NCBI GenBank assembly: GCA_034669905.1
Contig: JAXMOL010000008.1
Span: forward strand, 1-64,000
Source: Candidatus Hydrogenedentota bacterium
GTDB lineage: Bacteria; Hydrogenedentota; Hydrogenedentia; Hydrogenedentales; JAEUWI01
DNA: 64,000 nt
Direction of reading: 5' to 3'
Position 1 is the stretch's first letter, and each line of letters starts with the position of its first letter. A program made the translations under genes and the position numbers. Below are positions 164 to 50,964 of this stretch, piece by piece. A model generated the notes under the pieces. That model did not search any database, had not been told where the DNA came from, and saw only the letters and a list, made by a program, of their open reading frames with translations.

Positions 164-193
164 TTGACAAAATCACCGTTTGGCGCGTAAAAT
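164..193 (+). promoter_or_regulatory. sigma70-type promoter for the secretin operon
   Basis: TTGACA (164-169), 18 bp, TAAAAT (188-193) in an AT-rich intergenic region. Confidence 0.55.
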
Positions 194-264: not shown

Positions 265-663
265 ATGGAACTTCGTCCATATAGTGTTCTCATTGCCATC
301 GCGCTGATCCTCGGCGGGATCGGATCCGCTGCCGCCCATACCATTCCGGCAGACAAGGTGGACGCCCAGAAAATCTTTTACGGCAACTCAGAAGCCTTCG
401 AAGCCCCTGCGCGGGTGAACTATCAAAAAATAGTGAAGGCAACCCCTGAGTATTCGTCCATTAAGAAGAAAAAGATTGTGAGTGGCTCGGCCAAGTACTG
501 GATCCTTATCAGCAAGGCCAGCGACCGCGCACAACGTCTTATAAAGGAAGTGGGTGAAGAAACAAACTTTGACCTGGTGGTGGCCGATGGATATCTTGAA
601 ACCCTGGAACCTGCCATCGAAGCCGAAGATGTTACGGAGTTGGTCCTCGAAAAGCTCCAGTAG
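265..663 (+). CDS. Secreted protein, shortened Skp/OmpH-like
   Basis: Signal peptide (..SAAAH); ARVNYQKIV and IKEVGEETNFDLVV...EDVTELVLEKL resemble the Skp N- and C-terminal core, but the long coiled coil is missing. Confidence 0.55.
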   Translation: MELRPYSVLIAIALILGGIGSAAAHTIPADKVDAQKIFYGNSEAFEAPARVNYQKIVKATPEYSSIKKKKIVSGSAKYWILISKASDRAQRLIKEVGEETNFDLVVADGYLETLEPAIEAEDVTELVLEKLQ

Positions 664-688
664 GACTGGCCCCCCACCCCAAGCCACC

Positions 689-1696
689 ATGCTGTCTTTC
701 CCCATCAATTTGGGCGACCTCCGAAGGCTCCTGTGCCTTCCCATACTGGCTCTGCTGGTCGCCGGCTGCGCCCGCTCTTCGGATGTGCAACTCATTTCCG
801 AAGCCCGAGGCCCCTTAACGGCCAACAGCGCCACCGTCTCCAATGCGGCAGCCCGACAGGCCCTGGATGATGCCATGGGCATGATCCGGGCCGGCGAACA
901 TTCCATGGCCATTCCCCGCCTCACTTCCATCACGTCCCGGTACCCCGGCAGCGATGCGGCGGTGGACGCGTGGTATTTTCTCGGCCTCACCTACTACAAG
1001 ATCGATGGGCTCTACAATGCGGAGCGCTATTTTTCCAAATACCTGAGCCTCCGGCCAGACGGTAAGTATGCGGCCCTGAGCCGGGAGTACGTGGCCGGCA
1101 TTGCCCAGTCCGTGCAACAGCGCGAAACCGATCGGGAAGCCCTGGAAGCCCGGGTCGCGAAGTATGAGGGCGTCAGTGAACCGGAAGAATTAGCCACCCA
1201 TTTGGAACTTGCCGACACCTATTGGAATAATAGTGAATACGAGAAGGCCTCAGTAATCTATCAAAAACTGCTGAAAGCCTGGCCCTCCCTGAAAGACGAC
1301 GTCATCATCCGACGACGCATGGAGCCCGGACCGGACGGCAATTGGATCATTCTTACGCCGGAGGAAGTTAATCGGCGTTACAAAGAGGCCGAGCCCCTCT
1401 CCATCTTCAACACGGCCTCCTGGAAGAGCGGACAGTTTCGCCCCCTCCAGTTGGACTATACCAATGTCTACTATAACGTCTCCGGACAAGCCGTCAATCG
1501 CAGCGAAAGCCCGCTGCAGGATGTCCGCGTGACCATTACAATATTCAACTTTGGTGGCCAGGTCTACGATGTGCAAACGCAGCATCTGGGCTCGCTGCGG
1601 CCGGGTGAAACCCGGGCCTTCAGCGTACGCTTCTCGAATTTTGATAACATAGACAACGTCCATCGATTCGAGTGTGTAGGGACCTATCAGCGGTAA
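689..1696 (+). CDS. Lipoprotein with BamD/CpoB-like TPR repeats and C-terminal FxLYD-type Ig domain
   Basis: Lipobox LVAGC; YPGS..AWYFLGLTYY..YLSLRPDG TPR signature; VSGQAVN..VRVTITIFN..LGSLRPGETRAF. Confidence 0.75.
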   Translation: MLSFPINLGDLRRLLCLPILALLVAGCARSSDVQLISEARGPLTANSATVSNAAARQALDDAMGMIRAGEHSMAIPRLTSITSRYPGSDAAVDAWYFLGLTYYKIDGLYNAERYFSKYLSLRPDGKYAALSREYVAGIAQSVQQRETDREALEARVAKYEGVSEPEELATHLELADTYWNNSEYEKASVIYQKLLKAWPSLKDDVIIRRRMEPGPDGNWIILTPEEVNRRYKEAEPLSIFNTASWKSGQFRPLQLDYTNVYYNVSGQAVNRSESPLQDVRVTITIFNFGGQVYDVQTQHLGSLRPGETRAFSVRFSNFDNIDNVHRFECVGTYQR

Positions 1697-1703
1697 GGAA
1701 GTC

Positions 1704-2828
1704 ATGCGAGTTTTACAACGGACAGCGGTTCTCCTGGCACTCCTGGGAAGTAGTGCCGTCTGGGCACAAGACCCCCAGCAGGTCCAGGTGTCCGTCAAGG
1801 TCATTGAGTTCCAGACCAACAAAGACATTGAAACGGGGCTGAGCGCCTACTTCCAACAGCGCCTCGTGCCTCAGCCCTATGGCCGGGCGGACTCTCCGGT
1901 GGGGAGCATCAGCGCCTCCGACATCACCTTCCCCTCCAGCACGACGGCGGGTATTACCGTATTCCTTGATCGTCTTGTCACCCGCTATGGCGATATCGAG
2001 GTCGTCCTTCAGGCACTGGTCGATCAGGGCCGGGCCTTTATTCTTTCCCAACCGACCGCCTTGGTGCCCGTCGGTCCCGCCGCCGATGCCAAGCCCACCG
2101 TCATCAAGACGACGCAGGACATCCCTTATGAAGACACGGTAGTGGCGGGCTCAACGGCCGTGCAGATTACCAATTTCAAGCCCACCGGTGTGACGCTTAC
2201 GGTGGTGGCCTCGGAAATCCTGGATGATGATGGCGATCCCGAAACGAAGGAAGACACCTATATCAACCTTCAGTTAACGGCGTCGGTCGTCGAAGAAGGA
2301 CAGCGCATTACGGTCGCCCTGGACGATCTGCTGGCCGGTTCGGGCGGTATCTTTGACTCTTCGACCAATGCTATTCAGGTGCCCGAGTTTGTGTCCCGCA
2401 TTATTACAACCAACGTCTGGGTGCGCCATGGACAGGTGCTCATGCTCGGCGGACTCTACCGCAACACGGAGAGCAAAGACCTGGCGACCCTTCCGTGGCT
2501 GACCCAGAGTGACCGGTTCATGAATGGCGTCATCCAACGTGCGGTTCCCTTTGCCGTCCAACCCGTGCCACTGAGCAGCAGCATTGGTAACAATACCCTG
2601 GCGCATAGTCGTCGGGAATTGATCTTCCTCATCAAGGCCGACGTGCCCACCCTCATATTCGATGAGGGCATGGCGGTCGAAGAGGAGGGGTCCATGCTGA
2701 CCAACCCCACGGGGGTGGTGACCGACGTGTTGAAGACCATCGGGGATATCCCCCGGGAAATTGGCGAGAACGTAACCGGGGAAGATCTCGGCGACGGCAT
2801 TACGTCTGAGTTGGGAGCGGAAGAATGA
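1704..2828 (+). CDS. Secretin-family outer membrane protein, core domain only
   Basis: Signal peptide, then QVQVSVKVIE, ILSQPT, TGVTLTV, VRHGQVLMLGGL, LPWL, ELIFLI secretin motifs. Confidence 0.8.
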   Translation: MRVLQRTAVLLALLGSSAVWAQDPQQVQVSVKVIEFQTNKDIETGLSAYFQQRLVPQPYGRADSPVGSISASDITFPSSTTAGITVFLDRLVTRYGDIEVVLQALVDQGRAFILSQPTALVPVGPAADAKPTVIKTTQDIPYEDTVVAGSTAVQITNFKPTGVTLTVVASEILDDDGDPETKEDTYINLQLTASVVEEGQRITVALDDLLAGSGGIFDSSTNAIQVPEFVSRIITTNVWVRHGQVLMLGGLYRNTESKDLATLPWLTQSDRFMNGVIQRAVPFAVQPVPLSSSIGNNTLAHSRRELIFLIKADVPTLIFDEGMAVEEEGSMLTNPTGVVTDVLKTIGDIPREIGENVTGEDLGDGITSELGAEE

Positions 2829-3919
2829 TGTACCGCAACGGCATAAGGTTCCTGGCCCTGTTGGGTATGGCCACCCTGTCCTTTCCCGCCACCGCCCAGG
2901 ACCCGCCTCCGGCCGAGCCCGCACCCGCACCCGCCCCGGCGGAAGCGGCCCCCGCAGCCCCCGCTGAAGCCGCGCCTGCAGAAGCTCCCCGGGATATCCG
3001 GCAGGTGCAGGTACGGGTGCAGATTGTGGAAACCAACGAACGGGGACTCCGGGACATCGGCGCCAATCTGAATTACACCCGCTTTGTGGATGGTGTGGAG
3101 CAATCCGGCTCGTTGGAGCAGATCAGTACGAATACATTTGATTCCGTGGGCGATTTTCCCCGCGTTACCCTGCCCGTTCCCGATTCACGGGATGTGTTTC
3201 GCCCGGATGAAGACAACAACACGGCCAATGGCGTCCAGACCCGGGAAGGTTTCGGACTGACCGCCACCGTAATTGAGTCAAACCGTGGCACACTGGACAC
3301 CGTCTTCCGGGGTCTCGAAGAAGGGCTTGATACCGATGTAGTTTCCCGCCCCGAAATCCTGGTCATTGACCAGAAGCCGGCCACCATCAACGCCGGTGGC
3401 GAGGTGCCCTTCCAGGGCGTCACCTACAATAAGGACACGGGCGTACCGAAACTCAATGTGGAGTTCAAGCCCATCGGGGTCAATATGGACATGGTGCCCA
3501 CGATCCAACCCAATGACATTATTAAACTCGACATCACCAAGCTCGATGTAACCGACACGGTGCGTATCGAGAATATTCGTGGTGTGGATTTGCCTGTTTT
3601 CTCAACCCGCTCTCAGACGGGGGTGGTTTATGTACCCAGTGGACAGACCCTCGTAACGGGTGGCCTGACCTCGCGGCTGGTGCGCCAGAACGAACGGCGT
3701 GTCCCCATCATTGGCAAACTCCCCGTCGTCGGTTTTCCCTTTCGCAGCCGCCAATCCGAATCCAACTTACGGACCCTGCTCATCTTCGTGACGCCCACGG
3801 TCGTGGACCTGCGCAACCTGTCGCCGGACGGCAAGCGGGCCATGGAATTCTGGAAAGGCCGTAACTGGTCCAACGAAAAACGGATCGGTGCCGAGATGGA
3901 GGCCATGGAGTTCGAGTAA
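2825..3919 (+). CDS. Second secretin-family protein, core domain only, with Pro/Ala linker
   Basis: QVQVRVQIVE, VSRPEILV..A.INAGGEVP, GVNMDMVPTI, GQTLVTGGL, VPIIGKLPVVGFPFRS, LLIFVTPTVV; start overlaps upstream stop. Confidence 0.88.
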   Translation: MMYRNGIRFLALLGMATLSFPATAQDPPPAEPAPAPAPAEAAPAAPAEAAPAEAPRDIRQVQVRVQIVETNERGLRDIGANLNYTRFVDGVEQSGSLEQISTNTFDSVGDFPRVTLPVPDSRDVFRPDEDNNTANGVQTREGFGLTATVIESNRGTLDTVFRGLEEGLDTDVVSRPEILVIDQKPATINAGGEVPFQGVTYNKDTGVPKLNVEFKPIGVNMDMVPTIQPNDIIKLDITKLDVTDTVRIENIRGVDLPVFSTRSQTGVVYVPSGQTLVTGGLTSRLVRQNERRVPIIGKLPVVGFPFRSRQSESNLRTLLIFVTPTVVDLRNLSPDGKRAMEFWKGRNWSNEKRIGAEMEAMEFE

Positions 3920-4622: not shown

Positions 4623-6191
4623 ATGAAAGCCTGCTTACGGACCTATGGATGGGCCATCGCTTCTGGAATTCTCCTCTCCTGGGCCTTGCCCAACTTTCAC
4701 TGGTTCCCCCTGGCCTGGGTGGGCCTCATTCCCCTGCTCTATAACACGCGCAGCACGACCGCCAAGGTGAGTGCCGCCCGCTTTTTCGTGGCGGGCTGGG
4801 TCTTTAACTCCATCGTGCTCCAATGGCTGATCGGCAACATCTTCTGGGCCGGTGGCTGGGCCATTCTCGGACAGCAGGGCGTATGTCTCGCTCTTTCCGT
4901 CTATTGGGCCCTCCTCGGTGCCCTCTGGTCCCGCATGAATACCCGGCTCCCGGTGTGGCTCATCGCGCCCGCCTTTGGCCTCTGCTGGATTGCCATGGAG
5001 TGGTTGCAGGCCCGTCTCTTCAGCGGACTCGGCTGGGCGGCCCTCGGCTATAGCCAGGGTCCGGATATCTGGTTTTCCCAGGTGGCGGCACTGGGTGGCG
5101 TCTCCCTCCTCTCGGGTATCCTGGTGACCGTCAACGTATGGCTCACCCAGGCCGTGGCCGACCAATCGCTCCGCCTCCGCAGTGCGGCGGCGGCACTGAT
5201 GCTGGCGGTCGTCGCCCATGGGGTAGGCATGCTCCTCCTCGACAGTCCCGATGAGAATCCGGACACGCCCTTTTCGGTGGGTATCTATCAGAGCAACTAT
5301 GCCCAGCACATGAAATGGGACCCCCATTTTGAGCAGACCATGCTGGACATGGCCATTGACCAATCCACCATCGTCACCCAGAAGGAACCCGTCGACCTCT
5401 TCCTGTGGCCCGAAGCCCTCATCATGAATGAGTTTCGCGCACCCCGGACCCTTCGCCCCCTGCAGGAATTCGTCGCCAAGACCGACGTCCCCCTCTTCAC
5501 CGGGGCGGTCCGCCGGGAAAACACCCCCACACGGGCCTTCAACGCCAGCACCCTGATCAGACCCAACGGCGACTACGACATTTACGACAAGATGAAACTC
5601 GCCCCCTTCGGCGAATACATCCCCTTTGAGTCCTACCTCGCCTTTGCCCGGGGTATGGGCGCGGGCGGTGGTATTACGCCGGGGGACACACCACGCGTTT
5701 TCTCCGTGGGCGACCGCAAATTCGGGCCCCTCATTTGCTTCGAAGTCCTCTTTGCCCCCCTCGCCGATGAACGCCGTGCCCTGGGCGCCGATTTCCTCGT
5801 GGTGATTACCAACCTCGGCTGGTTTGGCGGCAGCAATGTCCTGTCCCAAGAGCTTGAGATTGCCCGCTTCCGGGCCATCGAAAATCGCTTGCCCCTCGTT
5901 CAGGCGGCCAACACGGGCGTCTCGGGCGTCATCGACCCCTGGGGCCGCATTAATGTCATTGACGGCGTGGTTACGGTGAAGGGGCGCTACCTCACGTGGG
6001 ACACGCCGCCCCCCCGCGGTGACGCCATGATGCAGCGTCGTGTGGGGGCCTTGCCCCTGCCGGAAGCGGCCGCCTTGCCCCTCCCCGGCTCGGTTCGCTG
6101 GTTTGGACGGCTCGCCACCCTGGGCGGTCTCGCACTCGCCCTGGCCCTGTGCTTCCTGCCCGCTCGACAGAAGGCCCCGGAAACGTCATGA
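4623..6191 (+). CDS. lnt: Apolipoprotein N-acyltransferase
   Basis: N-terminal TM helices; WPE, YDKMKLAPFGEYIP, ICFE, ITN, RAIENR, AANTGVS motifs. Confidence 0.95.
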   Translation: MKACLRTYGWAIASGILLSWALPNFHWFPLAWVGLIPLLYNTRSTTAKVSAARFFVAGWVFNSIVLQWLIGNIFWAGGWAILGQQGVCLALSVYWALLGALWSRMNTRLPVWLIAPAFGLCWIAMEWLQARLFSGLGWAALGYSQGPDIWFSQVAALGGVSLLSGILVTVNVWLTQAVADQSLRLRSAAAALMLAVVAHGVGMLLLDSPDENPDTPFSVGIYQSNYAQHMKWDPHFEQTMLDMAIDQSTIVTQKEPVDLFLWPEALIMNEFRAPRTLRPLQEFVAKTDVPLFTGAVRRENTPTRAFNASTLIRPNGDYDIYDKMKLAPFGEYIPFESYLAFARGMGAGGGITPGDTPRVFSVGDRKFGPLICFEVLFAPLADERRALGADFLVVITNLGWFGGSNVLSQELEIARFRAIENRLPLVQAANTGVSGVIDPWGRINVIDGVVTVKGRYLTWDTPPPRGDAMMQRRVGALPLPEAAALPLPGSVRWFGRLATLGGLALALALCFLPARQKAPETS

Positions 6192-7771
6192 GCGCCGCAC
6201 GCCACCAACTGACCCGTTTCGCCGCCATCTTTGCCGGCGGCACCATGCTGAGCCGCGTCCTTGGACTCGTCCGCGATGTGGTGCTCCTTTCCGCCATCCC
6301 CGGACCAGCGAAGGAAATCTTTTTTTTCGCCTTCAAGATTCCCAATATGCTGCGGGACATGCTCGGCGAGGGTGCGGTGAACGCCGCCTATGTACCCCTC
6401 TTCTCCCGCAGTCTCGAGCAGGACGGCGAAGAAGCCTTCAAGCGACTGGTGCGGGCCTGTCTCTCGGCCACCATGATCCTCTTTTTCGTACTCACCGTGG
6501 TCGGCATCCTCCTCGTGCCCCTGCTCCCCACGGCCCTGGCACTCCTCCAGCCCCTGAGCCACGCCGATCCCCTGCCCCAGGAAACGCTGGAACGGACCAT
6601 GGAGGTCCTTCGGTGGATTATCCCCTATCTCTTTTTTATCGGCACGGCCGTCTTCGCCATGGGCCCCCTCTTTGTGGTCAAGCACTACGGCACGCCGTCC
6701 TGGGCACCCATGTTGCTCAATATCGCCCTTATCGCCTCGTGCCTCCTGCTCAACGACTATTTTACGGACCCTGTCTGGGCGCTGGTGACGGGCGTCTGGA
6801 TCGGCGGCATCGCCCAGCTCATCGTCCTCTTCCTCGCCATGAAGCGCCACACGGGCGTGCTCCTCCCCTCGTGGGAATTGGGACACCCCGGCGTGAAACA
6901 GGCCCTCTTCCTCTTGCTGCCCGTTATCGTGGGCCAGGCCACGGGGGAAGTGAACAAACTGGTGGACGCCTTTTTCGCCTTCAAGCTCGAAGCCGTGACC
7001 ACCCTCTATGCCGCCAACCGCCTCATCCAATTACCCCTGTCTATCTTTGGCATCGCCGTGGCCGTGGCCATCCTGCCCACCATCTCCGCCGCCGGGGCCC
7101 GGAAAGACCACGGCGAGATTCGCGCGACCCTCCTTCACGCCCTCCGCCAATCGGCCTTTCTTGTCTTACCCGCACTCGTCGCCCTCCTCGTCATGGGCGA
7201 AGAAATCGTGGGACTCCTCTTCGTCCATGGCGGTGGTGAATTTACCGCGAGCGATGGACACGACGCCGCCCTCGCCCTCTTTTACTACGGGCTCGGGCTC
7301 CTGTCTTTCACGTGGGTCAAGGTGGGTGTGCAGGGATTCTTCGCCATCCACGACACCCGCACCCCCGTCATCATTGCGACCCTCAGCATGGCCCTCAACA
7401 TCGGACTCAACATGCTCCTCGTGGGTCCCATGGGATTCCGCGGCCTGGCCCTCGCCACCTCCATTTCCTTCACCGCCAACTTCCTCGGGCTCTATCTGCT
7501 CTTGGGAAAACGCTACGGCACCCTCCTCTCCGCAGAATTCCTCTTGGGCATGGCCAAGCTCGCCGTGGCCGCCATACTGTCCGCCGGGGCCCTACTCCTC
7601 GCCCAACGGACCCTTCCCCTCGAATGGCTCCCCGGAGGCTGGTTTGGCGAACTCCTCAACGTCACCGCCCTACTGCTTATCCTCGCCACCACCTACCTCA
7701 TAAGCAGCCTGGCCCTCCGCGTCGACGACATGGCCATCCTGAAACGACTCCTCCGCCGTCGCCGCGCCTGA
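6188..7771 (+). CDS. murJ: Lipid II flippase MurJ (MviN)
   Basis: TMLSRVLGLVRD, AFKIPNMLR..GEGA, YAANRLIQLP, DTRTP, GLALATS; ATGA overlap with lnt. Confidence 0.95.
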   Translation: MSAARHQLTRFAAIFAGGTMLSRVLGLVRDVVLLSAIPGPAKEIFFFAFKIPNMLRDMLGEGAVNAAYVPLFSRSLEQDGEEAFKRLVRACLSATMILFFVLTVVGILLVPLLPTALALLQPLSHADPLPQETLERTMEVLRWIIPYLFFIGTAVFAMGPLFVVKHYGTPSWAPMLLNIALIASCLLLNDYFTDPVWALVTGVWIGGIAQLIVLFLAMKRHTGVLLPSWELGHPGVKQALFLLLPVIVGQATGEVNKLVDAFFAFKLEAVTTLYAANRLIQLPLSIFGIAVAVAILPTISAAGARKDHGEIRATLLHALRQSAFLVLPALVALLVMGEEIVGLLFVHGGGEFTASDGHDAALALFYYGLGLLSFTWVKVGVQGFFAIHDTRTPVIIATLSMALNIGLNMLLVGPMGFRGLALATSISFTANFLGLYLLLGKRYGTLLSAEFLLGMAKLAVAAILSAGALLLAQRTLPLEWLPGGWFGELLNVTALLLILATTYLISSLALRVDDMAILKRLLRRRRA

Positions 7772-8296: not shown

Positions 8297-9118
8297 CTAA
8301 TTGTAATGCTCCATAAACGTCACGTCTCCATCCCAGTTGTTGAGGTCGTCGCCACCACCGAGGTATTCATCGGGCGCATTGTTGCGGTAGTGATTTCGGG
8401 CGGGCGGGGCGTAGGTGTGGCTGGGGTCATAACGGGGTTGGTCGGAAACTTCGTTCTCGCCGAAGGACCAGATATACACCTCCTTCGCGGCATCGGCCGG
8501 AAATCCTTGTTGTCCCGGATCAGCACCCGGCACATGCACTGTCAGCTGGTCGGGCGGTGTGGTGCCTTCGGGAATCCCGGTGGGGGTGAACACGCGGTTT
8601 GCCCGGTAGCTACGAAACAGGACGGGCCCCATGGTCGGTGGCCAGGGGCCGGGAAAGATTTGGTAGGGGTTACCCCAATGATCGTCCTCCAGCGATGTCA
8701 TATAGCTGGTGCCCAGTTTGCTTACCACGGCGGGGTCCAAAGTCTGCTGCGCGGGTTTGAGCAAGGAGTCTCCCCATGAGGCCTCAAGGGTAAGGGCACC
8801 CCGCCCGTGATTGATGAGCGCATAGGTCGCGCGGGTATAGAGGGCGCTACTGGCCTCGAAAAGGTTGGTATTGTGGGCCGCCATATACGCCGTGGTGGCC
8901 TGCTCAAAGGCCACGGGGTCGAAGAAGTCACGGAGACTACCCTTGCCCACATCCCGGAGCATCTTGGTAAGCGCAAGTTCGATGTTGCTAATTTCCGCCT
9001 GAACGCGAGCCGTGCTCCCGTAATTGGTCAAGGGAGAAAAGTAAGGCCGGACCACCAGGTAAAACCCCGCAGCGACCGTTGCCAACGTCGCCAATACCAC
9101 AATAAAATCTCGTTTCAT
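8297..9118 (-). CDS. GspG/pseudopilin-like membrane-anchored protein
   Basis: N-terminal TM, amphipathic helix (AEISNIELALTKM), DHWGNPY, IWSFGEN and GDDLNNW motifs of the GspG C-domain; no G/FTLxE prepilin site. Confidence 0.6.
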   Translation of the reverse strand: MKRDFIVVLATLATVAAGFYLVVRPYFSPLTNYGSTARVQAEISNIELALTKMLRDVGKGSLRDFFDPVAFEQATTAYMAAHNTNLFEASSALYTRATYALINHGRGALTLEASWGDSLLKPAQQTLDPAVVSKLGTSYMTSLEDDHWGNPYQIFPGPWPPTMGPVLFRSYRANRVFTPTGIPEGTTPPDQLTVHVPGADPGQQGFPADAAKEVYIWSFGENEVSDQPRYDPSHTYAPPARNHYRNNAPDEYLGGGDDLNNWDGDVTFMEHYN

Positions 9119-9353
9119 GCCGCAATACCTCCAAAGACACTGTAGCACCATGCCTCCAGCGAATCGAATACGTACACTCGCTGAATTCAGGCCTTGGGCA
9201 CTCCCGCCACGGCAGAAACGCCCCCAACGGGGAGCGTAGGCATTACTACGGGGAGCATGGGAACGAAGAGAAACCTGGTGCCGGGGGCACCCATGCCGGC
9301 GGGCCGCCGGCGCGCCATACCCCAGGGAGTCTCTGCACGCGCCCCATAATCCT

Positions 9354-45149: not shown

Positions 45150-45327
45150 GCGATGCCGAGTAAAACGAGGTTTCGTGTGCGTGGAGGGCAAGTGATGAGT
45201 CCTCTTCGAGATGCGCCAGATTCGGGCGTCCGAGCCCAGCCGTCGAAGAGACGCCCGCGTACGTCCGCTACCATGGCCCCTCGTCGGTATCGCTCCACGC
45301 GCACAAACCCTCGCACCTCGGGATCGC
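45150..45327. other. 178-nt imperfect rod-like hairpin (candidate ncRNA or MITE)
   Basis: 45150-45186 pairs with 45293-45327; inner stem 45202-45209 with 45243-45250. Confidence 0.5.
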
Positions 45328-45510
45328 GCGGCACGAAGATGGTGCTATTCAGGTCACCTGCGACGAAGACCGAGAGAGGCCCTGCGGCCGTGCTCCTGTC
45401 CCATCCGGGGCACACCGTGCTATGGTAGAGGGACGCGGCGGGCACCGAGGTGGCACCCCGCCCGCTGCGACACAACGCATCAACCGAACGTTTATTCCAG
45501 GGATTTCGTT

Positions 45511-48500
45511 ATGTACCGCTGTACCCTTCTCCGGACTCGTGGGAGTCTGCTTCTTCTTTCCGTGCGCATCGCGCTGGTGCTGGCTTGCTTCCAGGGAGCA
45601 CAGAGCGCTCCCAAACAGGCGACCGATACCAGCACGGTGGAGGGCCAGTACTTTGCCCATGACATGTTCGAACGCTATACGGATGGGCAGGAGCTGGGCC
45701 GGGGCTTTCGTACCTACAATCCCAACAATCAAATGACCCGCCTCTTTACGTACCCGGTCTCGACGCCCCTGGATTACGAGGTGGCGACAAACGGCAGCTA
45801 TCGGCTTTACACGGACACCTTCGACGGAGGATTCGGCGGAAGCATCGGCCTGGCCGGGGGGCTCACGGTATTCAGCCAGGAGAGCGCGCCGAATGCTGAC
45901 CCCCAGGTCCCCGACGGCTTTGCGAGCCTCCAGCTTTCGGTCCGCCAAGGAAGCGGTATGAACGACAGCGCCTTCGACGGAAGTTACAGCTACCACGCCC
46001 TTCTTCGCGACGACGACGGCACCTATCGCACCAGCTTCGGCGCGGCCAACGCCAATGGTGGCGGTGCCTACTTTCTGATTCGTGAATCAGCCATCGTCCG
46101 CACCTTCTCCTACGACGTGGTGTCCGATGGCCGCATCGACCTCGGCCCCCAGGAACCCAACTTCGCCGCGGTTGTGCCGGGGGGCGATGTGGTCGTCAAC
46201 ACGGCCACCTACGACAATGGGGATGACCCGGAAGCGCCGGACGGTTACACGGGGCTGGCCCTCTACCTTCGTCGCTTTCCCGACAACGATGCAACCTATA
46301 CCGATTTTCGGGGCACCTACCGAATCCATCAGCTCAGCAGTGATGGCAGCACCACGCCCCGGTCGGAGGTGGGTACCATCACGGCAGGTGGGGGCGGTTA
46401 TTTCTTCGGCACGCTGGATGGACTCGACTACTCCGGGCAGATTCAGTTGAATACCACGGGCACCTTCACCCTCGTGGACAGCACTGCCTACCAGGGGACC
46501 CTCAGCGCCGCAGGCGACATCGCGGTCCTCACCACTACAGGCAGCACCACCCCGACCCTCACGCTCTGGGTGCGCACGGCGGGCGGCCCTGGCAATGCCC
46601 GCGACGAAGATGGCGACGGCGTCCCAGACAGTGAGGAAGGGGCACTCGGCACCGCAATAGACAATCCGGATACGGACGGCGACGGACTGCTGGACAACAC
46701 GGACACCCGGCCCACCATCGCCGACAATGTGGTGGCCGCCACCCTGAGTGAATCGCGCGTGGTCTTCGAGTCGGATGGCCCCACGAGCGCCGAGCTTACC
46801 CTGACCCTGGACAGCGATGACTTCCCCTTTTTCGATTGGACCTTGTCCTCCAACGTTTCCTGGTTAACCCTGGATCGTTCCGAAGGGTTCGGGGACGACA
46901 CCATCACGCTGCGTATCAATGCAGCCAACCTCACCATCGAAGACAGCCCCTACGTGGCGACCATCGACCTCGTCGCGCCCAACATGGCCCCCGTTACCCC
47001 CCTTTCGCTCACCGTGGAGATTGCCACCACCCAGGTCGACCTCCTGGTCTCCCCGGAGACGCTTTCGCTGGCGGCTATCGAAGGGGGCCCGCTCGTCTCG
47101 GCAACAGTCTCCCTGAGCAGTCCGGATGGCGATGATTTCTCTTGGGAAAGTGACGGGGTCCCCACCTGGCTGACGGTGACCCCGCCGGAAGGGGTCGGCC
47201 CCACCGAAGTGACCCTCACGGTGGACCCGACCGAATTGGTCGTGGCGAATACACCCTATACGACCACGATCACCTTTCGACCCGACTTTGCCGGGCCCAA
47301 GTCTGCGACGGTCTCCCTTACCGTGGACGTATTGCCACCGCGTGAAATCGATGTCCCCTTTCCCCTGTTCCCGGGCGAGAGCGCCCAGACCGGTCCCGCC
47401 GTTGCTTTCGACCCCACCACGGGCCAGTGGCTGGCAACCTGGGTCGAAGAGGAGGCCATCTGGTTGTTGATACTGGATGAAACCCTCCTGCCCTTCGGTG
47501 ACCCCGTCCAGCTTTCGGGCGATTTCTTCGGCATCGCCGACAACCCCGCCATCGTCCTCGTCGATGACGCGCGCGAGGCCTGGGTCATCTGGGAACAGCG
47601 CCAGTCCCCCACCGACGATGCCATCCTACAGGTCCGGCCCATTGACCTGACAGACCGCAGCCTCGGTAACCGCTTCGGTTTCACGACGGCATCGGGCGAC
47701 AAGTCCACCCCGTCCGCCACCTACAACGCCGTGACGAACGAGGTGCTGGTGACCTACGACCTCGAATTTGCGGACCAGGCCTTTGTCGGACAGGCGCGCA
47801 TCGACGGCACCACGCGGGAGGAGCGGGGCACGGGCTTCGCCGCCACCAACGACCATCACCAATCCCGTCCAGCTGTGGCCTGGCTCGCGGACAGCAACCG
47901 CTACCTGGTCGTCTGGCGCGAGATTATTCCCGGTGAAGAAGCGGATGTCATCCAAATTCGAGCTGCCCGTCTCGACGGCGATACGGGGGAAATTCTCGGA
48001 GAAATCCTTGTCGTCGATGAGGAGGCCCCCAACGCCGCTCACCTTCGGGTAAGCGCCGCGACGGGGTTGGGCAGCTGGACCGTCACCTGGTCGGAAGCCT
48101 CGTTGACCAGCCTGCCCGCCCGATTACAGAGTCGCGCGGTCACCGCAGACGGCCTCATCGGAACCCGCTACACGCTGGATACGACCCAGCGGGCCATTCC
48201 GCCGGTGGAGATGGCCTACAACCCCGCTTCACGTTTGGGCACGATCCTCTGGACCCGCGCCCCGGGAGAGGAAGGCGACGTGGCGGTTTACCAATACACG
48301 TCGGGCCAGGGCCAGCCTCTGGGCGATCCGGTGAGTTTACCCGACATGCCCCGTTCGGCGAGTAGTGCCGCTGTAGGGGCCAACCCGAATGACAACGAAA
48401 TTCTATTGGTTTGGGAAGACCCCGCGACCATTCCGCGACAGCTTCGGGCACTTCGGATTTCGGGCGGCTCCGACGATGTCGATGGGGATGGGCTCCCCAA

Positions 48501-50964
48501 TGAATGGGAACTGGGCTTCGGGCTCAATCCCAACAGCGACGGTGGCGATGATGGCGCCCTCGGCGACCCTGATGAGGATGGGTTGAGTAACCTCGCCGAA
48601 TTCCTGCTCGGAACAGACCCGACCAATCCCGATGGCGATGGCGACGGCCTCCTGGATGGCCAGGAGGACACGAACAATGACGGCATGATAACGGATGCTG
48701 AGACCAGTCCGCTGAATCCCGATACGGACGACGACGACGTACCCGATGCCGTGGAGTGGTTCCTGGGAAGCAACGGAGCGGACCCCGATGACCGGCCCGA
48801 CTCGGGCATCTACCGTATCGACTACGGCACGTGGACACCGGGAGAATCAGGCACCGTGACGGTGGGCTTTTACCTCGCTGAAGCGGCATCGACGGCATTG
48901 CAGGTCAATCCAGACGGGGTGCAGAAGCAGGTTGCGGCGGAAGACTGGACGATGGGCTCGGAGGATGAAGGAGACGTTGTGCTTCGCGATGCCGGTGTGC
49001 ACGAAATCACCTATCAGCTGACGCCGTCGGTGGATGTTACGGCGACGACTGCCTATGGGACCTTTCGCTTCGAGTTGCGAGACAGCGAGGGTCTCGTGGA
49101 TGCCCGCACGGTCGTATTGGTGGCCGATCCCCTGGGCGCCTATGGGGGCGACGGAGTCAACACGGCCCAATCCCTGGCGGAAGCCTATGCGCCCGTGCTG
49201 CGCCTCCATCGGGATGCGGTATTCGCGCCCATTCCGGTAGAACTCAGTCTCGACACCGCCCGATTCGATATGGGAAATACCATGACCCTTCGCGTGGCAC
49301 CAAGGCCCATTGACCTCCATCAATCGCCCTATCTAGAAGCCCAGGTCGACCTGCCGGGAGAAGATACGGAAGCACTCTTTGCCGCCTACCCGGATGTGGA
49401 AGTGCGTCCCGCTCCCACCCTGTATTACACGGTGGCCGCCCTGGACAAAGAGAACGACCCGCCGCGCCAATTGGCCATCCAGTACTACCTCCACTTCTAC
49501 GCCGATGTGTGGGGGCTGGACCAACCCGGCGGCCATCGTCACGAAGGCGACTGGGAAGTATTTCAGGTCCTTATCAACGACGGACTGCCCTTCCAGGCCA
49601 CAGCAACCCAGCAAAGCCAACTGGCCGCCCTGGACGGGGAAGTCGCTGGAGGCGAGAGTCGCCCCTGGGAGGCCATCGAAGTCACGCCCGCGTCTCGCCC
49701 CATTGTGTATGTGGCGCACGGGAGTCACGCCCTCTACTTTGAGCCGGGTGCCACGGTCTTTGATGCCGGGCTGGACATCGGTGACGGTCTGGGATACTGG
49801 CTGCTTCCCGAAGGAGCTGACGGTCTCCTGAGCAGTACCGATTACCCGAATACGCTCGGAATTTCCCTAACCCCCCTGGGGCGGGCCCAAAGCGACGAGG
49901 CACCACGCTGGCTGCGCTTCGCGGGCCGTTGGGGGCAGTGGAACTATCCCATACCGGAAGCAGACAACCCGGCTCCCACGGTGAACGACGGCCCTCTGGG
50001 TCCCCTCTTCCTCGGCACGACGACCGATCCCCGGGACGAATCCGGGGTTCTACACGTCTGGTCAGACCCCCTCGCCTTTGCCACCCGCATGCCGAATAAC
50101 ACCGACTCCCGGGAATCAGAAATTCGCGTCCTCCTTCCCGAGTCTGTGTGGGGCGATACGGCGATGCTCCTGGATGCCCGGGGGCGCATTTTCTCCGCCG
50201 CCATCTCCGCCATCGACGGTAGCGTTGCCATTACGGCACCCGTGCAAAGCTATTTGTTCGGCGTGGTCGATTGGCCGACAGGAAGCCGCCCCACCCTTCG
50301 CGCCATGGCGCGCTTCAGGCTCTTCAACACCACGACGCCTGTCTTTCAGGCTACCGAGGGCGTAAGCGATTTGGGGACGCTCACCTTCGAAGATGGCTTC
50401 CTCGTCGGCGTGGGCAACTACGCGCTCCAGGACACCGATGGGGATAGCGTGAGCGACCATCTCGACCCCGATATGGACGGGGATGGCAAATTAAACACGG
50501 ACGACGACGACCTGCTGAACGACGGTTGGTCGGATGCCTATCATGCCCAGGACTCCGATGGGGACGGCGTGCCCGATTTCCTGGACGATGACGATGATGG
50601 AGACGACCTGATTGACGCCCTGGACCCAGACCGGGATGGCAATGGCATGGACGATGGGGACGACCCGGGCGACCAGGATGGCGATGGCTTCCTGGACGCG
50701 GTAGATCTCGATCGGGATAACGACGGCTTTACCGATGCGGAGGAGCGGTCGGCGGGGAGCAATCCCCTCCACTATCTCGATACCCCCTTGCAGCAGGTGG
50801 GCGATTTGGATGGCGATGGCGATGTGGACGCTGCCGATGGCCAACAACTGGTCAACCAGGCCTTGGGCCGGGCGCCCTACGATGCCCGGCTGGACTATAA
50901 TCTGAACGGCACAATTGATGCCGTCGACCTCCAGCTGCTGATCGACGACATTCTACACCCCTAA
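45511..50964 (+). CDS. Giant secreted protein (~1817 aa): BACON/Ig-like repeats, propeller-like region, TSP3-like Ca-binding repeats, Vps62/DUF946-like domain, C-terminal dockerin-like domain
   Basis: W..SSNVSWLTL..SEG.G repeats; many DxDGDG motifs; YAPVLRLH..IQYY..HEGDWE..P.VYVA.GSHA.Y..W..F.GRWG..GP.GP; GDLDGDGDVDAAD..DYNLNGTIDAVD. Confidence 0.8.
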   Translation: MYRCTLLRTRGSLLLLSVRIALVLACFQGAQSAPKQATDTSTVEGQYFAHDMFERYTDGQELGRGFRTYNPNNQMTRLFTYPVSTPLDYEVATNGSYRLYTDTFDGGFGGSIGLAGGLTVFSQESAPNADPQVPDGFASLQLSVRQGSGMNDSAFDGSYSYHALLRDDDGTYRTSFGAANANGGGAYFLIRESAIVRTFSYDVVSDGRIDLGPQEPNFAAVVPGGDVVVNTATYDNGDDPEAPDGYTGLALYLRRFPDNDATYTDFRGTYRIHQLSSDGSTTPRSEVGTITAGGGGYFFGTLDGLDYSGQIQLNTTGTFTLVDSTAYQGTLSAAGDIAVLTTTGSTTPTLTLWVRTAGGPGNARDEDGDGVPDSEEGALGTAIDNPDTDGDGLLDNTDTRPTIADNVVAATLSESRVVFESDGPTSAELTLTLDSDDFPFFDWTLSSNVSWLTLDRSEGFGDDTITLRINAANLTIEDSPYVATIDLVAPNMAPVTPLSLTVEIATTQVDLLVSPETLSLAAIEGGPLVSATVSLSSPDGDDFSWESDGVPTWLTVTPPEGVGPTEVTLTVDPTELVVANTPYTTTITFRPDFAGPKSATVSLTVDVLPPREIDVPFPLFPGESAQTGPAVAFDPTTGQWLATWVEEEAIWLLILDETLLPFGDPVQLSGDFFGIADNPAIVLVDDAREAWVIWEQRQSPTDDAILQVRPIDLTDRSLGNRFGFTTASGDKSTPSATYNAVTNEVLVTYDLEFADQAFVGQARIDGTTREERGTGFAATNDHHQSRPAVAWLADSNRYLVVWREIIPGEEADVIQIRAARLDGDTGEILGEILVVDEEAPNAAHLRVSAATGLGSWTVTWSEASLTSLPARLQSRAVTADGLIGTRYTLDTTQRAIPPVEMAYNPASRLGTILWTRAPGEEGDVAVYQYTSGQGQPLGDPVSLPDMPRSASSAAVGANPNDNEILLVWEDPATIPRQLRALRISGGSDDVDGDGLPNEWELGFGLNPNSDGGDDGALGDPDEDGLSNLAEFLLGTDPTNPDGDGDGLLDGQEDTNNDGMITDAETSPLNPDTDDDDVPDAVEWFLGSNGADPDDRPDSGIYRIDYGTWTPGESGTVTVGFYLAEAASTALQVNPDGVQKQVAAEDWTMGSEDEGDVVLRDAGVHEITYQLTPSVDVTATTAYGTFRFELRDSEGLVDARTVVLVADPLGAYGGDGVNTAQSLAEAYAPVLRLHRDAVFAPIPVELSLDTARFDMGNTMTLRVAPRPIDLHQSPYLEAQVDLPGEDTEALFAAYPDVEVRPAPTLYYTVAALDKENDPPRQLAIQYYLHFYADVWGLDQPGGHRHEGDWEVFQVLINDGLPFQATATQQSQLAALDGEVAGGESRPWEAIEVTPASRPIVYVAHGSHALYFEPGATVFDAGLDIGDGLGYWLLPEGADGLLSSTDYPNTLGISLTPLGRAQSDEAPRWLRFAGRWGQWNYPIPEADNPAPTVNDGPLGPLFLGTTTDPRDESGVLHVWSDPLAFATRMPNNTDSRESEIRVLLPESVWGDTAMLLDARGRIFSAAISAIDGSVAITAPVQSYLFGVVDWPTGSRPTLRAMARFRLFNTTTPVFQATEGVSDLGTLTFEDGFLVGVGNYALQDTDGDSVSDHLDPDMDGDGKLNTDDDDLLNDGWSDAYHAQDSDGDGVPDFLDDDDDGDDLIDALDPDRDGNGMDDGDDPGDQDGDGFLDAVDLDRDNDGFTDAEERSAGSNPLHYLDTPLQQVGDLDGDGDVDAADGQQLVNQALGRAPYDARLDYNLNGTIDAVDLQLLIDDILHP

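Follow-up and report, generated by a model that had tools for sequence, protein, structure and literature searches.

In this study, we describe an operon at the start of a 64,000-nucleotide stretch of DNA (the window) from Candidatus Hydrogenedentota bacterium (assembly GCA_034669905.1, contig JAXMOL010000008.1, positions 1 to 64,000 of the forward strand), which encodes two secretins without N-domains, SecA and SecB, together with a tetratricopeptide-repeat (TPR) lipoprotein and a short Skp-like protein (mini-Skp). Secretins are taught as homo-oligomeric exits of pilus- or needle-type machines, on which they dock via their N-domains. The analysis shows that the operon is a real system and a newly seen form of the secretin-pilotin arrangement, with a core of three genes, those for the lipoprotein, SecA and SecB. 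We give an even chance to the view that the products constitute a motor-less gated secretin channel, likely of mixed SecA/SecB composition, which the lipoprotein would pilot as TadD pilots RcpA. No description of this operon was found in the literature searched, which lay outside most subscription papers and supplements.

The four open reading frames (ORFs) all lie on the + strand within positions 265-3919, in the order mini-Skp, TPR-FxLYD lipoprotein, secA and secB, separated by 25 bp and 7 bp and then by a 4-bp ATGA overlap between secA and secB, in agreement with the tight, co-oriented packing proposed by an earlier reading of the sequence alone. Firstly, both secretins match the Secretin family PF00263 (53.6 bits for SecA and 115.6 bits for SecB; Pfam cut-off 27.5), and no Secretin_N, STN, N0, BON or AMIN domain was detected in either of them by Pfam at E<=1, using a library that does detect Secretin_N in all five long secretins of this genome. 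Secondly, the barrel directly follows the signal peptide or a Pro/Ala linker: the first strand, QVQVSVKVIE, begins at residue 26 of SecA, and the corresponding QVQVRVQIVE at residue 60 of SecB, behind the linker. The same N-less layout was present in 40/40 loci fetched from relatives, which were chosen for their long contigs out of 58 genomes with a match, and among 7991 scored candidates only one SecB form is longer, a copy whose C-terminus is broken and which likewise has no N-domain. Both proteins also score far under the NCBIfam cut-offs for GspD, PilQ and SctC. Thus, the proposal of the sequence-only reading that both secretins lack N-domains, with a strand right behind the signal peptide, was borne out. 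A frameshift that would restore a full-length secretin was sought and found in none of the 40 loci; this candidate was rejected, the barrel standing directly behind the signal peptide in all of them.

It could be argued that the two genes are decayed fragments, or what is left of a split secretin with its N-domains in another gene, as in mitochondrial GspD/GspDN, a precedent described in PMC8134430; moreover, three weak STN matches lie outside the known secretins. However, the intact signal peptides in 40/40 loci, a dN/dS (ratio of non-synonymous to synonymous substitution rates) of 0.04, and the location of all 11 Secretin_N matches of the genome inside the five long secretins, with no free Secretin_N gene, make this explanation very improbable.

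Positions 6-276 of SecB align with Vibrio EpsD, a stretch that takes in a long loop region, the amphipathic loop and the two gate hairpins, and the alignment to XcpQ/EpsD runs through RVPIIGKLPVVGFPFR. The names of these elements follow the papers cited here and common usage for secretins. SecA is only 23% identical to SecB; it keeps the gate hairpins and has an amphipathic loop of 38 residues, versus 22. A DDDG-like acidic loop is present in 86/91 SecA sequences, and it might conceivably bind calcium. In loci of the type found in Sumerlaeota, SecA often stops at the last strand and lacks the C-tail, which SecB keeps there. Two broken copies, possibly assembly errors, were also encountered (L090:4562-5749 and L112:150-1907): in one of them, secA has an internal stop codon, and in the other, secB runs into unrelated sequence before the last strand.

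The second gene had been proposed to encode a TPR/FxLYD lipoprotein, and this is supported by a lipobox, TPR repeats and an FxLYD_dom match above its cut-off. The lipobox pattern is present in 61/85 distinct orthologues, and 23 of the remaining 24 have a cysteine behind a hydrophobic stretch. A BamD identity was rejected, the BamD model TIGR03302 (five TPRs) giving 45.9 bits against a cut-off of 81.4 that other ORFs of the genome do pass. The PilF/PilW model TIGR02521 gave 16.7 bits (cut-off 154), which is a narrow test as the model passes in 0/14 control genomes, and the lipoprotein is absent from the 13 PilW-like matches at E<=1e-6. Protein-atlas searches returned its own cluster and otherwise generic TPR matches, the FxLYD part staying under 0.9, and a sequence search of the PDB with the lipoprotein profile returned only generic TPR proteins, BamD and CpoB.

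The conservation of these genes is pronounced. The lipoprotein is present in 92/94 genomes of the phylum Hydrogenedentota, each at least 90% complete, the misses being G060 and G089. SecB was found in 58/61 relatives at 47-95% identity, with one strong match each and the copy split over contigs in two genomes. Directly adjacent secA and secB genes, in this order, were present in 40/40 of the fetched loci, accompanied by the lipoprotein gene in 38 and the mini-Skp gene in 36; contig ends account for five of the six gaps. In a second scan of 79 loci, from genomes partly overlapping those of the first set, 53 had the plain four-gene order, 19 were cut by contig ends, and 7 had a duplicated or split secretin. 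The dN/dS values against the nearest relative (0.07, 0.068, 0.045 and 0.037 for the four genes) compare with 0.117 for lnt. Thus, the claim of a conserved operon withstood the gene-order check across relatives. As to the claim of a four-gene system, the order proved conserved, and it is the mini-Skp gene that falls outside the core: the core is the trio because mini-Skp has no match in G062 or in the Sumerlaeota-type loci with enough upstream sequence; G061, a genome of another order, has all four genes. RNA contigs from one run of a relative, mostly <99% alike, cover parts of all four genes and lend weak support; that run holds 0.12 of the words, leaves lnt and murJ uncovered and has three pieces of at least 150 nt in a 20-kb control, and, having been found with this very stretch, it cannot be used to rank genes.

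The arrangement extends beyond the phylum. A profile search of 1.84 billion representatives revealed a second tier of N-less secretins of 290-390 amino acids (aa), the named ones coming from Sumerlaeota/BRC1, Omnitrophota and Calescamantes. A metagenome scan yielded 18 loci, four of the Hydrogenedentales type and 14 others; among the latter, the lipoprotein gene precedes secA in 12/12 loci with sequence there, and secB follows in 10/10. The neighbours of the Sumerlaeota-type loci vary and do not include lnt or murJ. In a quick tree of 77 rows (10 of 35 rows each from A1 and A2), the SecA sequences of the two phyla group together in a single clade (SH-aLRT 98), and the data are compatible with all SecB as one clade (p-AU 0.75) and with a clade of SecA, SecB and six distant short secretins (p-AU 0.63). 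Six N-domain-less secretins of 290-360 aa form a clade of their own (P0044, P0045, P0052, P0054, P0055 and P0075), one being named Calescamantes and one Omnitrophota.

With respect to how the two secretins relate to each other, each may build a homo-oligomeric pore of its own, or the two may stack as rings, with one pilotin serving both; such pores would be large, general diffusion channels through which solutes, for example oligosaccharides, could pass. On the one hand, the solved secretins among the structure matches listed are all homo-oligomers, SecA or SecB has been duplicated independently, and the divergently transcribed neighbour in 29/40 loci encodes a secreted, weakly GH42-like protein; in addition, the title of Disconzi et al. 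2014, cited for its title alone, speaks of open pores formed by secretins. On the other hand, SecA and SecB are never apart where contigs allow a check, their stop and start codons overlap, Sumerlaeota-type SecA lacks a C-tail, and the GH42 match lies below its cut-off (E 9e-4) and is absent for the orthologue of this genome. On balance, we find separate pores doubtful. A SecA-SecB coevolution analysis (91 pairs, effective number 62) had no power on this point, since its top pairs were signal-peptide and lineage noise and the hairpin ladders that served as positive control were absent.

Several observations weigh against a motor-less channel of mixed composition, the first of which concern motors. 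ATPases of the T2SSE family number 7-21 in each of 61/61 genomes, with 4-11 secretin matches in 60/61, and independence from motors can therefore not be shown by profile. This genome encodes 18 such ATPases, eight of them of the GspE/PilB type, and five full-length secretins, and five of the eight GspE/PilB-type loci have no secretin gene nearby. Furthermore, in G062 (L178:7938-16991) the trio, without mini-Skp, is followed after ~500 bp by pilM-pilN-pilO and a gene for full-length PilQ, all on the same strand. Based on this, it is conceivable that type II secretion system (T2SS) or type IVa pilus (T4aP) machines encoded elsewhere use the short secretins as their outer-membrane exit or as an accessory layer, with the TPR-FxLYD body of the lipoprotein standing in for the N-domains in the connection to the motor, or piloting PilQ too; no protein of this genome reaches the PilW/PilF cut-off, so that the pilotin of PilQ is unassigned. 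However, T2SS and T4aP operons own full-length secretins, no free N-domain gene was found, the lipoprotein is not PilW-like by the searches above, and matches to PilM/N/O, ATPase or platform proteins occur in the flanks of only 1/139 loci of a partly redundant set, that of G062. We judge an exit or accessory role in these machines unlikely, though far from negligible.

The resemblance to RcpA and TadD might also suggest that a Tad pilus encoded in trans draws its RcpA-TadD module from these genes. The architecture, a short secretin with a TPR lipoprotein, is the same, and CpaC is the label that its source gives to one distant short relative. The profile largely refutes this idea: RcpC/CpaB was found in 0/1 genomes here and in 7/94 of the phylum, versus 92/94 for the lipoprotein, no RcpA N-domain is present, and in G025 the RcpC gene has its own secretin (a 569-aa frame) 1.2 kb away. 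A Tad pilus was therefore rejected as the owner of the operon, and a Tad module in trans is hardly credible.

The remaining points that count against the motor-less mixed channel concern the composition of the operon and the pore itself. In G060 (97% complete; L053:9231-11990), mini-Skp is joined directly to secA and no lipoprotein match is present, so the lipoprotein is not indispensable, and G089 (95%) has neither a lipoprotein nor a SecA match. Tandem duplications of the whole trio, or of SecA or SecB by itself, are present in L087, L088, L094, L095, L104 and L106; where copies were compared, in four of these loci, they share 72-84% identity. Such duplications make a fixed 1:1 pairing less strict. 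The structural model of SecA, for which all the Foldseek rows listed at E<=0.001 are secretins, is poor (pLDDT 58.8). The linkage to lnt and murJ is confined to one order; lnt does not adjoin the trio in G061, in G062 or in the Sumerlaeota-type loci. Finally, N3 is described as needed for assembly of PulD-type pores (PMC8134430), and antibiotics leak through an undocked secretin, PilQ, unless it is plugged (PMC13392014).

The Skp-like protein was originally proposed to be a dedicated chaperone. Its model is of high quality (pLDDT 94.5), and Skp, OmpH and SkpA were its top rows in Foldseek and VIA (Z 6.4/5.2/5.2, next 3.9; best Foldseek E 0.013), although the top match (86 residues aligned, root-mean-square deviation 3.2) is a moderate one only, its Z being under 8. 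OmpH stays under the Pfam cut-off in 27/30 members, and BLASTP gave no match between mini-Skp and the canonical Skp of the genome. The genome encodes BamA, a canonical Skp adjoining bamA, and an LptD match; thus, it is that of an ordinary diderm, and mini-Skp is a second, special paralogue. By a hand count, ~49 residues separate the body motifs, versus ~107 in canonical Skp, and the helices measure 8 and 24 residues. With ~58 residues of its tentacles lost, mini-Skp is too short for a client cage. Moreover, no match to it was found in 8/8 Sumerlaeota-type loci with at least 800 bases upstream, nor in G062. Together, these results weaken the proposed chaperone role; a general Skp chaperone was rejected, and mini-Skp is likely a structural accessory that is lineage-specific.

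How might the motor-less mixed channel work? The products of the operon would be exported by the Sec pathway, their signals cleaved and the TPR protein lipidated. The TPR-FxLYD lipoprotein would then bind the secretin C-tail as TadD binds RcpA, piloting the ring and bracing it from outside. This proposal leans on P. aeruginosa RcpA, which lacks N3, forms rings only with the TPR lipoprotein TadD and is bound by it at its last residues (PMC10499894). SecA and SecB would co-assemble into one gated outer-membrane ring without N3, a mixed assembly suggested by their constant pairing, by translational coupling and by the tail-less Sumerlaeota-type SecA, which, having no tail to be piloted by, would need SecB; both proteins are always kept despite being so little alike. 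Similarly, mitochondrial GspD lacks N0-N3 and forms pores (PMC8134430). Since a pilus or secretion motor would dock onto N-domains, and the channel has none, it may operate without such a motor. Mini-Skp would be an optional, lineage-specific component on the periplasmic side, much like SkpA of the type IX translocon, whose structure includes both this Skp homologue and a TPR lipoprotein (PMC10994853). If this model holds, we tentatively suggest, at somewhat less than an even chance, that the cargo consists of envelope macromolecules (surface lipoproteins or glycan) that pass un-energised by a housekeeping route, based on the analogy with Slam, a motor-less surface-lipoprotein route that uses Skp (PMC9090332), and on the lnt/murJ neighbourhood of that one order; slime polymer is released through secretins (PMC12475490). 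A bolder version is improbable, if worth stating: an obligate, alternating SecA/SecB ring, barrel-only, lipoprotein-braced and capped by a tentacle-less Skp trimer, could serve two or more phyla as an essential motor-less translocon that carries surface lipoproteins or polymers of the envelope, and could be the first obligate mixed-subunit bacterial secretin. As far as the proposal of a stand-alone operon goes, the part that stands is a conserved, self-contained set with two N-less secretins and a TPR lipoprotein, and all three checks that could have refuted it left it standing.

Table 1. Features of the operon and its downstream neighbours in the window
Feature	Position	Strand	Remarks
Sigma-70-like promoter (predicted), TTGACA-18-TAAAAT	164..193	+	11/12 consensus matches
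Mini-Skp, 132 aa	265..663	+	signal peptide; Skp body fold; tentacles ~58 residues shorter
Lipoprotein (predicted), 335 aa from ATG at 689	689..1696	+	lipobox LVAGC, Cys27; TPR repeats; C-terminal FxLYD; candidate pilotin/scaffold
SecA, 374 aa, divergent barrel-only secretin	1704..2828	+	acidic DDDG loop; lengthened amphipathic loop; amphipathic C-tail
SecB, 364 aa, barrel-only secretin	2825..3919	+	Pro/Ala linker; canonical amphipathic loop; conserved helical C-tail; 4-bp overlap with secA
lnt (apolipoprotein N-acyltransferase)	4623..6191	+	common downstream neighbour (32/40 loci), outside core
murJ (lipid II flippase)	6149..7771	+	common downstream neighbour (30/40 loci), outside core

The suggestion of a single promoter ahead of the operon agrees with the predicted site (Table 1), one of 6 sites found in the promoter scan versus 2.1+/-1.6 in shuffles. 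As the window starts where the contig starts, the upstream region was explored through relatives and through contig C6 of this genome, to the start of which the upstream flank of the nearest relative maps with the same two genes. In 29/40 loci, the divergent GH42-like neighbour has ~856 aa and often a DUF4139 gene next to it; on C6, the counterparts are a secreted 854-aa protein with no Pfam match (L179:370-2934), one orthologue of which gives the weak GH42 match, and a DUF4139-like one (L179:2969-4528). No T2SS or Tad genes were present in the upstream flanks examined, and a canonical T2SS/Tad machine upstream of position 1 was consequently rejected. Within the window, no ATPase, platform, PilM/N/O or N-domain match was found by Pfam (38 of the 56+ long ORFs) or by tblastn of the whole window with eight T2SS and type IV pilus queries. 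The earlier statement that secretion partners are missing from the window is correct for these components but has to be qualified for one pilin-like gene, which stands alone at 8300-9151 (-), has no Pfam match, shares 63% over 30 residues with a pilin of the C38 T2SS locus, and was seen only here and in the nearest relative. Elsewhere in the window, a 1917-aa ORF (45211-50964, +) has a bacterial TSP3 repeat near its C-terminus as its sole domain. Elsewhere in the genome, a gene at C2:116022-117500 (-), equivalent to L005:1387-2865, encodes a fusion of Poly_export PF02563, one Secretin_N and Secretin; it adjoins ORFs that, by eye, resemble a chain-length co-polymerase, a polymerase/ligase and an AAA ATPase, has an orthologue in 50/94 phylum genomes, and is likely the outer-membrane exit of a Wzx/Wzy polysaccharide pathway.

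A natural barrel-only secretin pair that is core-like across a phylum would define the minimal secretin, allow the dispensability of N3 and the existence of mixed secretin rings to be tested, and point to motor-independent use of such pores. Co-expression of the four small genes in E. coli is feasible and makes these questions directly testable; a large pore of such minimal build could also interest those who look for nanopore scaffolds.

Of the known systems, RcpA-TadD of P. aeruginosa (PDB 8ODN, matched by the SecA/SecB profiles or model; PMC10499894) resembles the operon in having an N3-less secretin ring that depends on a TPR lipoprotein at its C-tail, with the two genes adjoining as they do here. 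However, RcpA has an N-domain, forms a homo-ring from a single gene and serves a pilus, whereas the operon described here has two paralogues without any N-domain and a lipoprotein that bears an FxLYD domain, and 87/94 genomes have no Tad genes. The mitochondrial GspD/GspDL pair of the mitochondrial T2SS (PMC8134430) likewise combines an N-domain-less pore-forming secretin with a second, divergent paralogue; in that system, the N-domains survive as a separate GspDN, GspE/F/G partners exist, and the GspD proteins lack the first part of the C-domain, which SecA and SecB keep. With GspD of the T2SS and PilQ of the T4aP, the pair shares a complete secretin core, in which the amphipathic loop and the gate hairpins can be aligned with XcpQ and EpsD, but unlike these, and unlike SctC of the type III secretion system, it lacks N0-N3/STN/AMIN and is not linked to platform or ATPase genes. 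Mini-Skp shares the body fold of Skp/OmpH but not the long helical tentacles that form the client cavity. The type IX SprA-SprE-SkpA translocon (PMC10994853) also joins an outer-membrane channel to a TPR lipoprotein and a structural Skp homologue, SkpA being the third VIA row for mini-Skp; the likeness is one of analogy only, since the channel there, SprA, is a barrel made of one chain and has no kinship with secretins, the tentacles of SkpA are complete, and a motor energises the system. The same applies to the Slam translocon with Skp (PMC9090332), as Slam is not a secretin.

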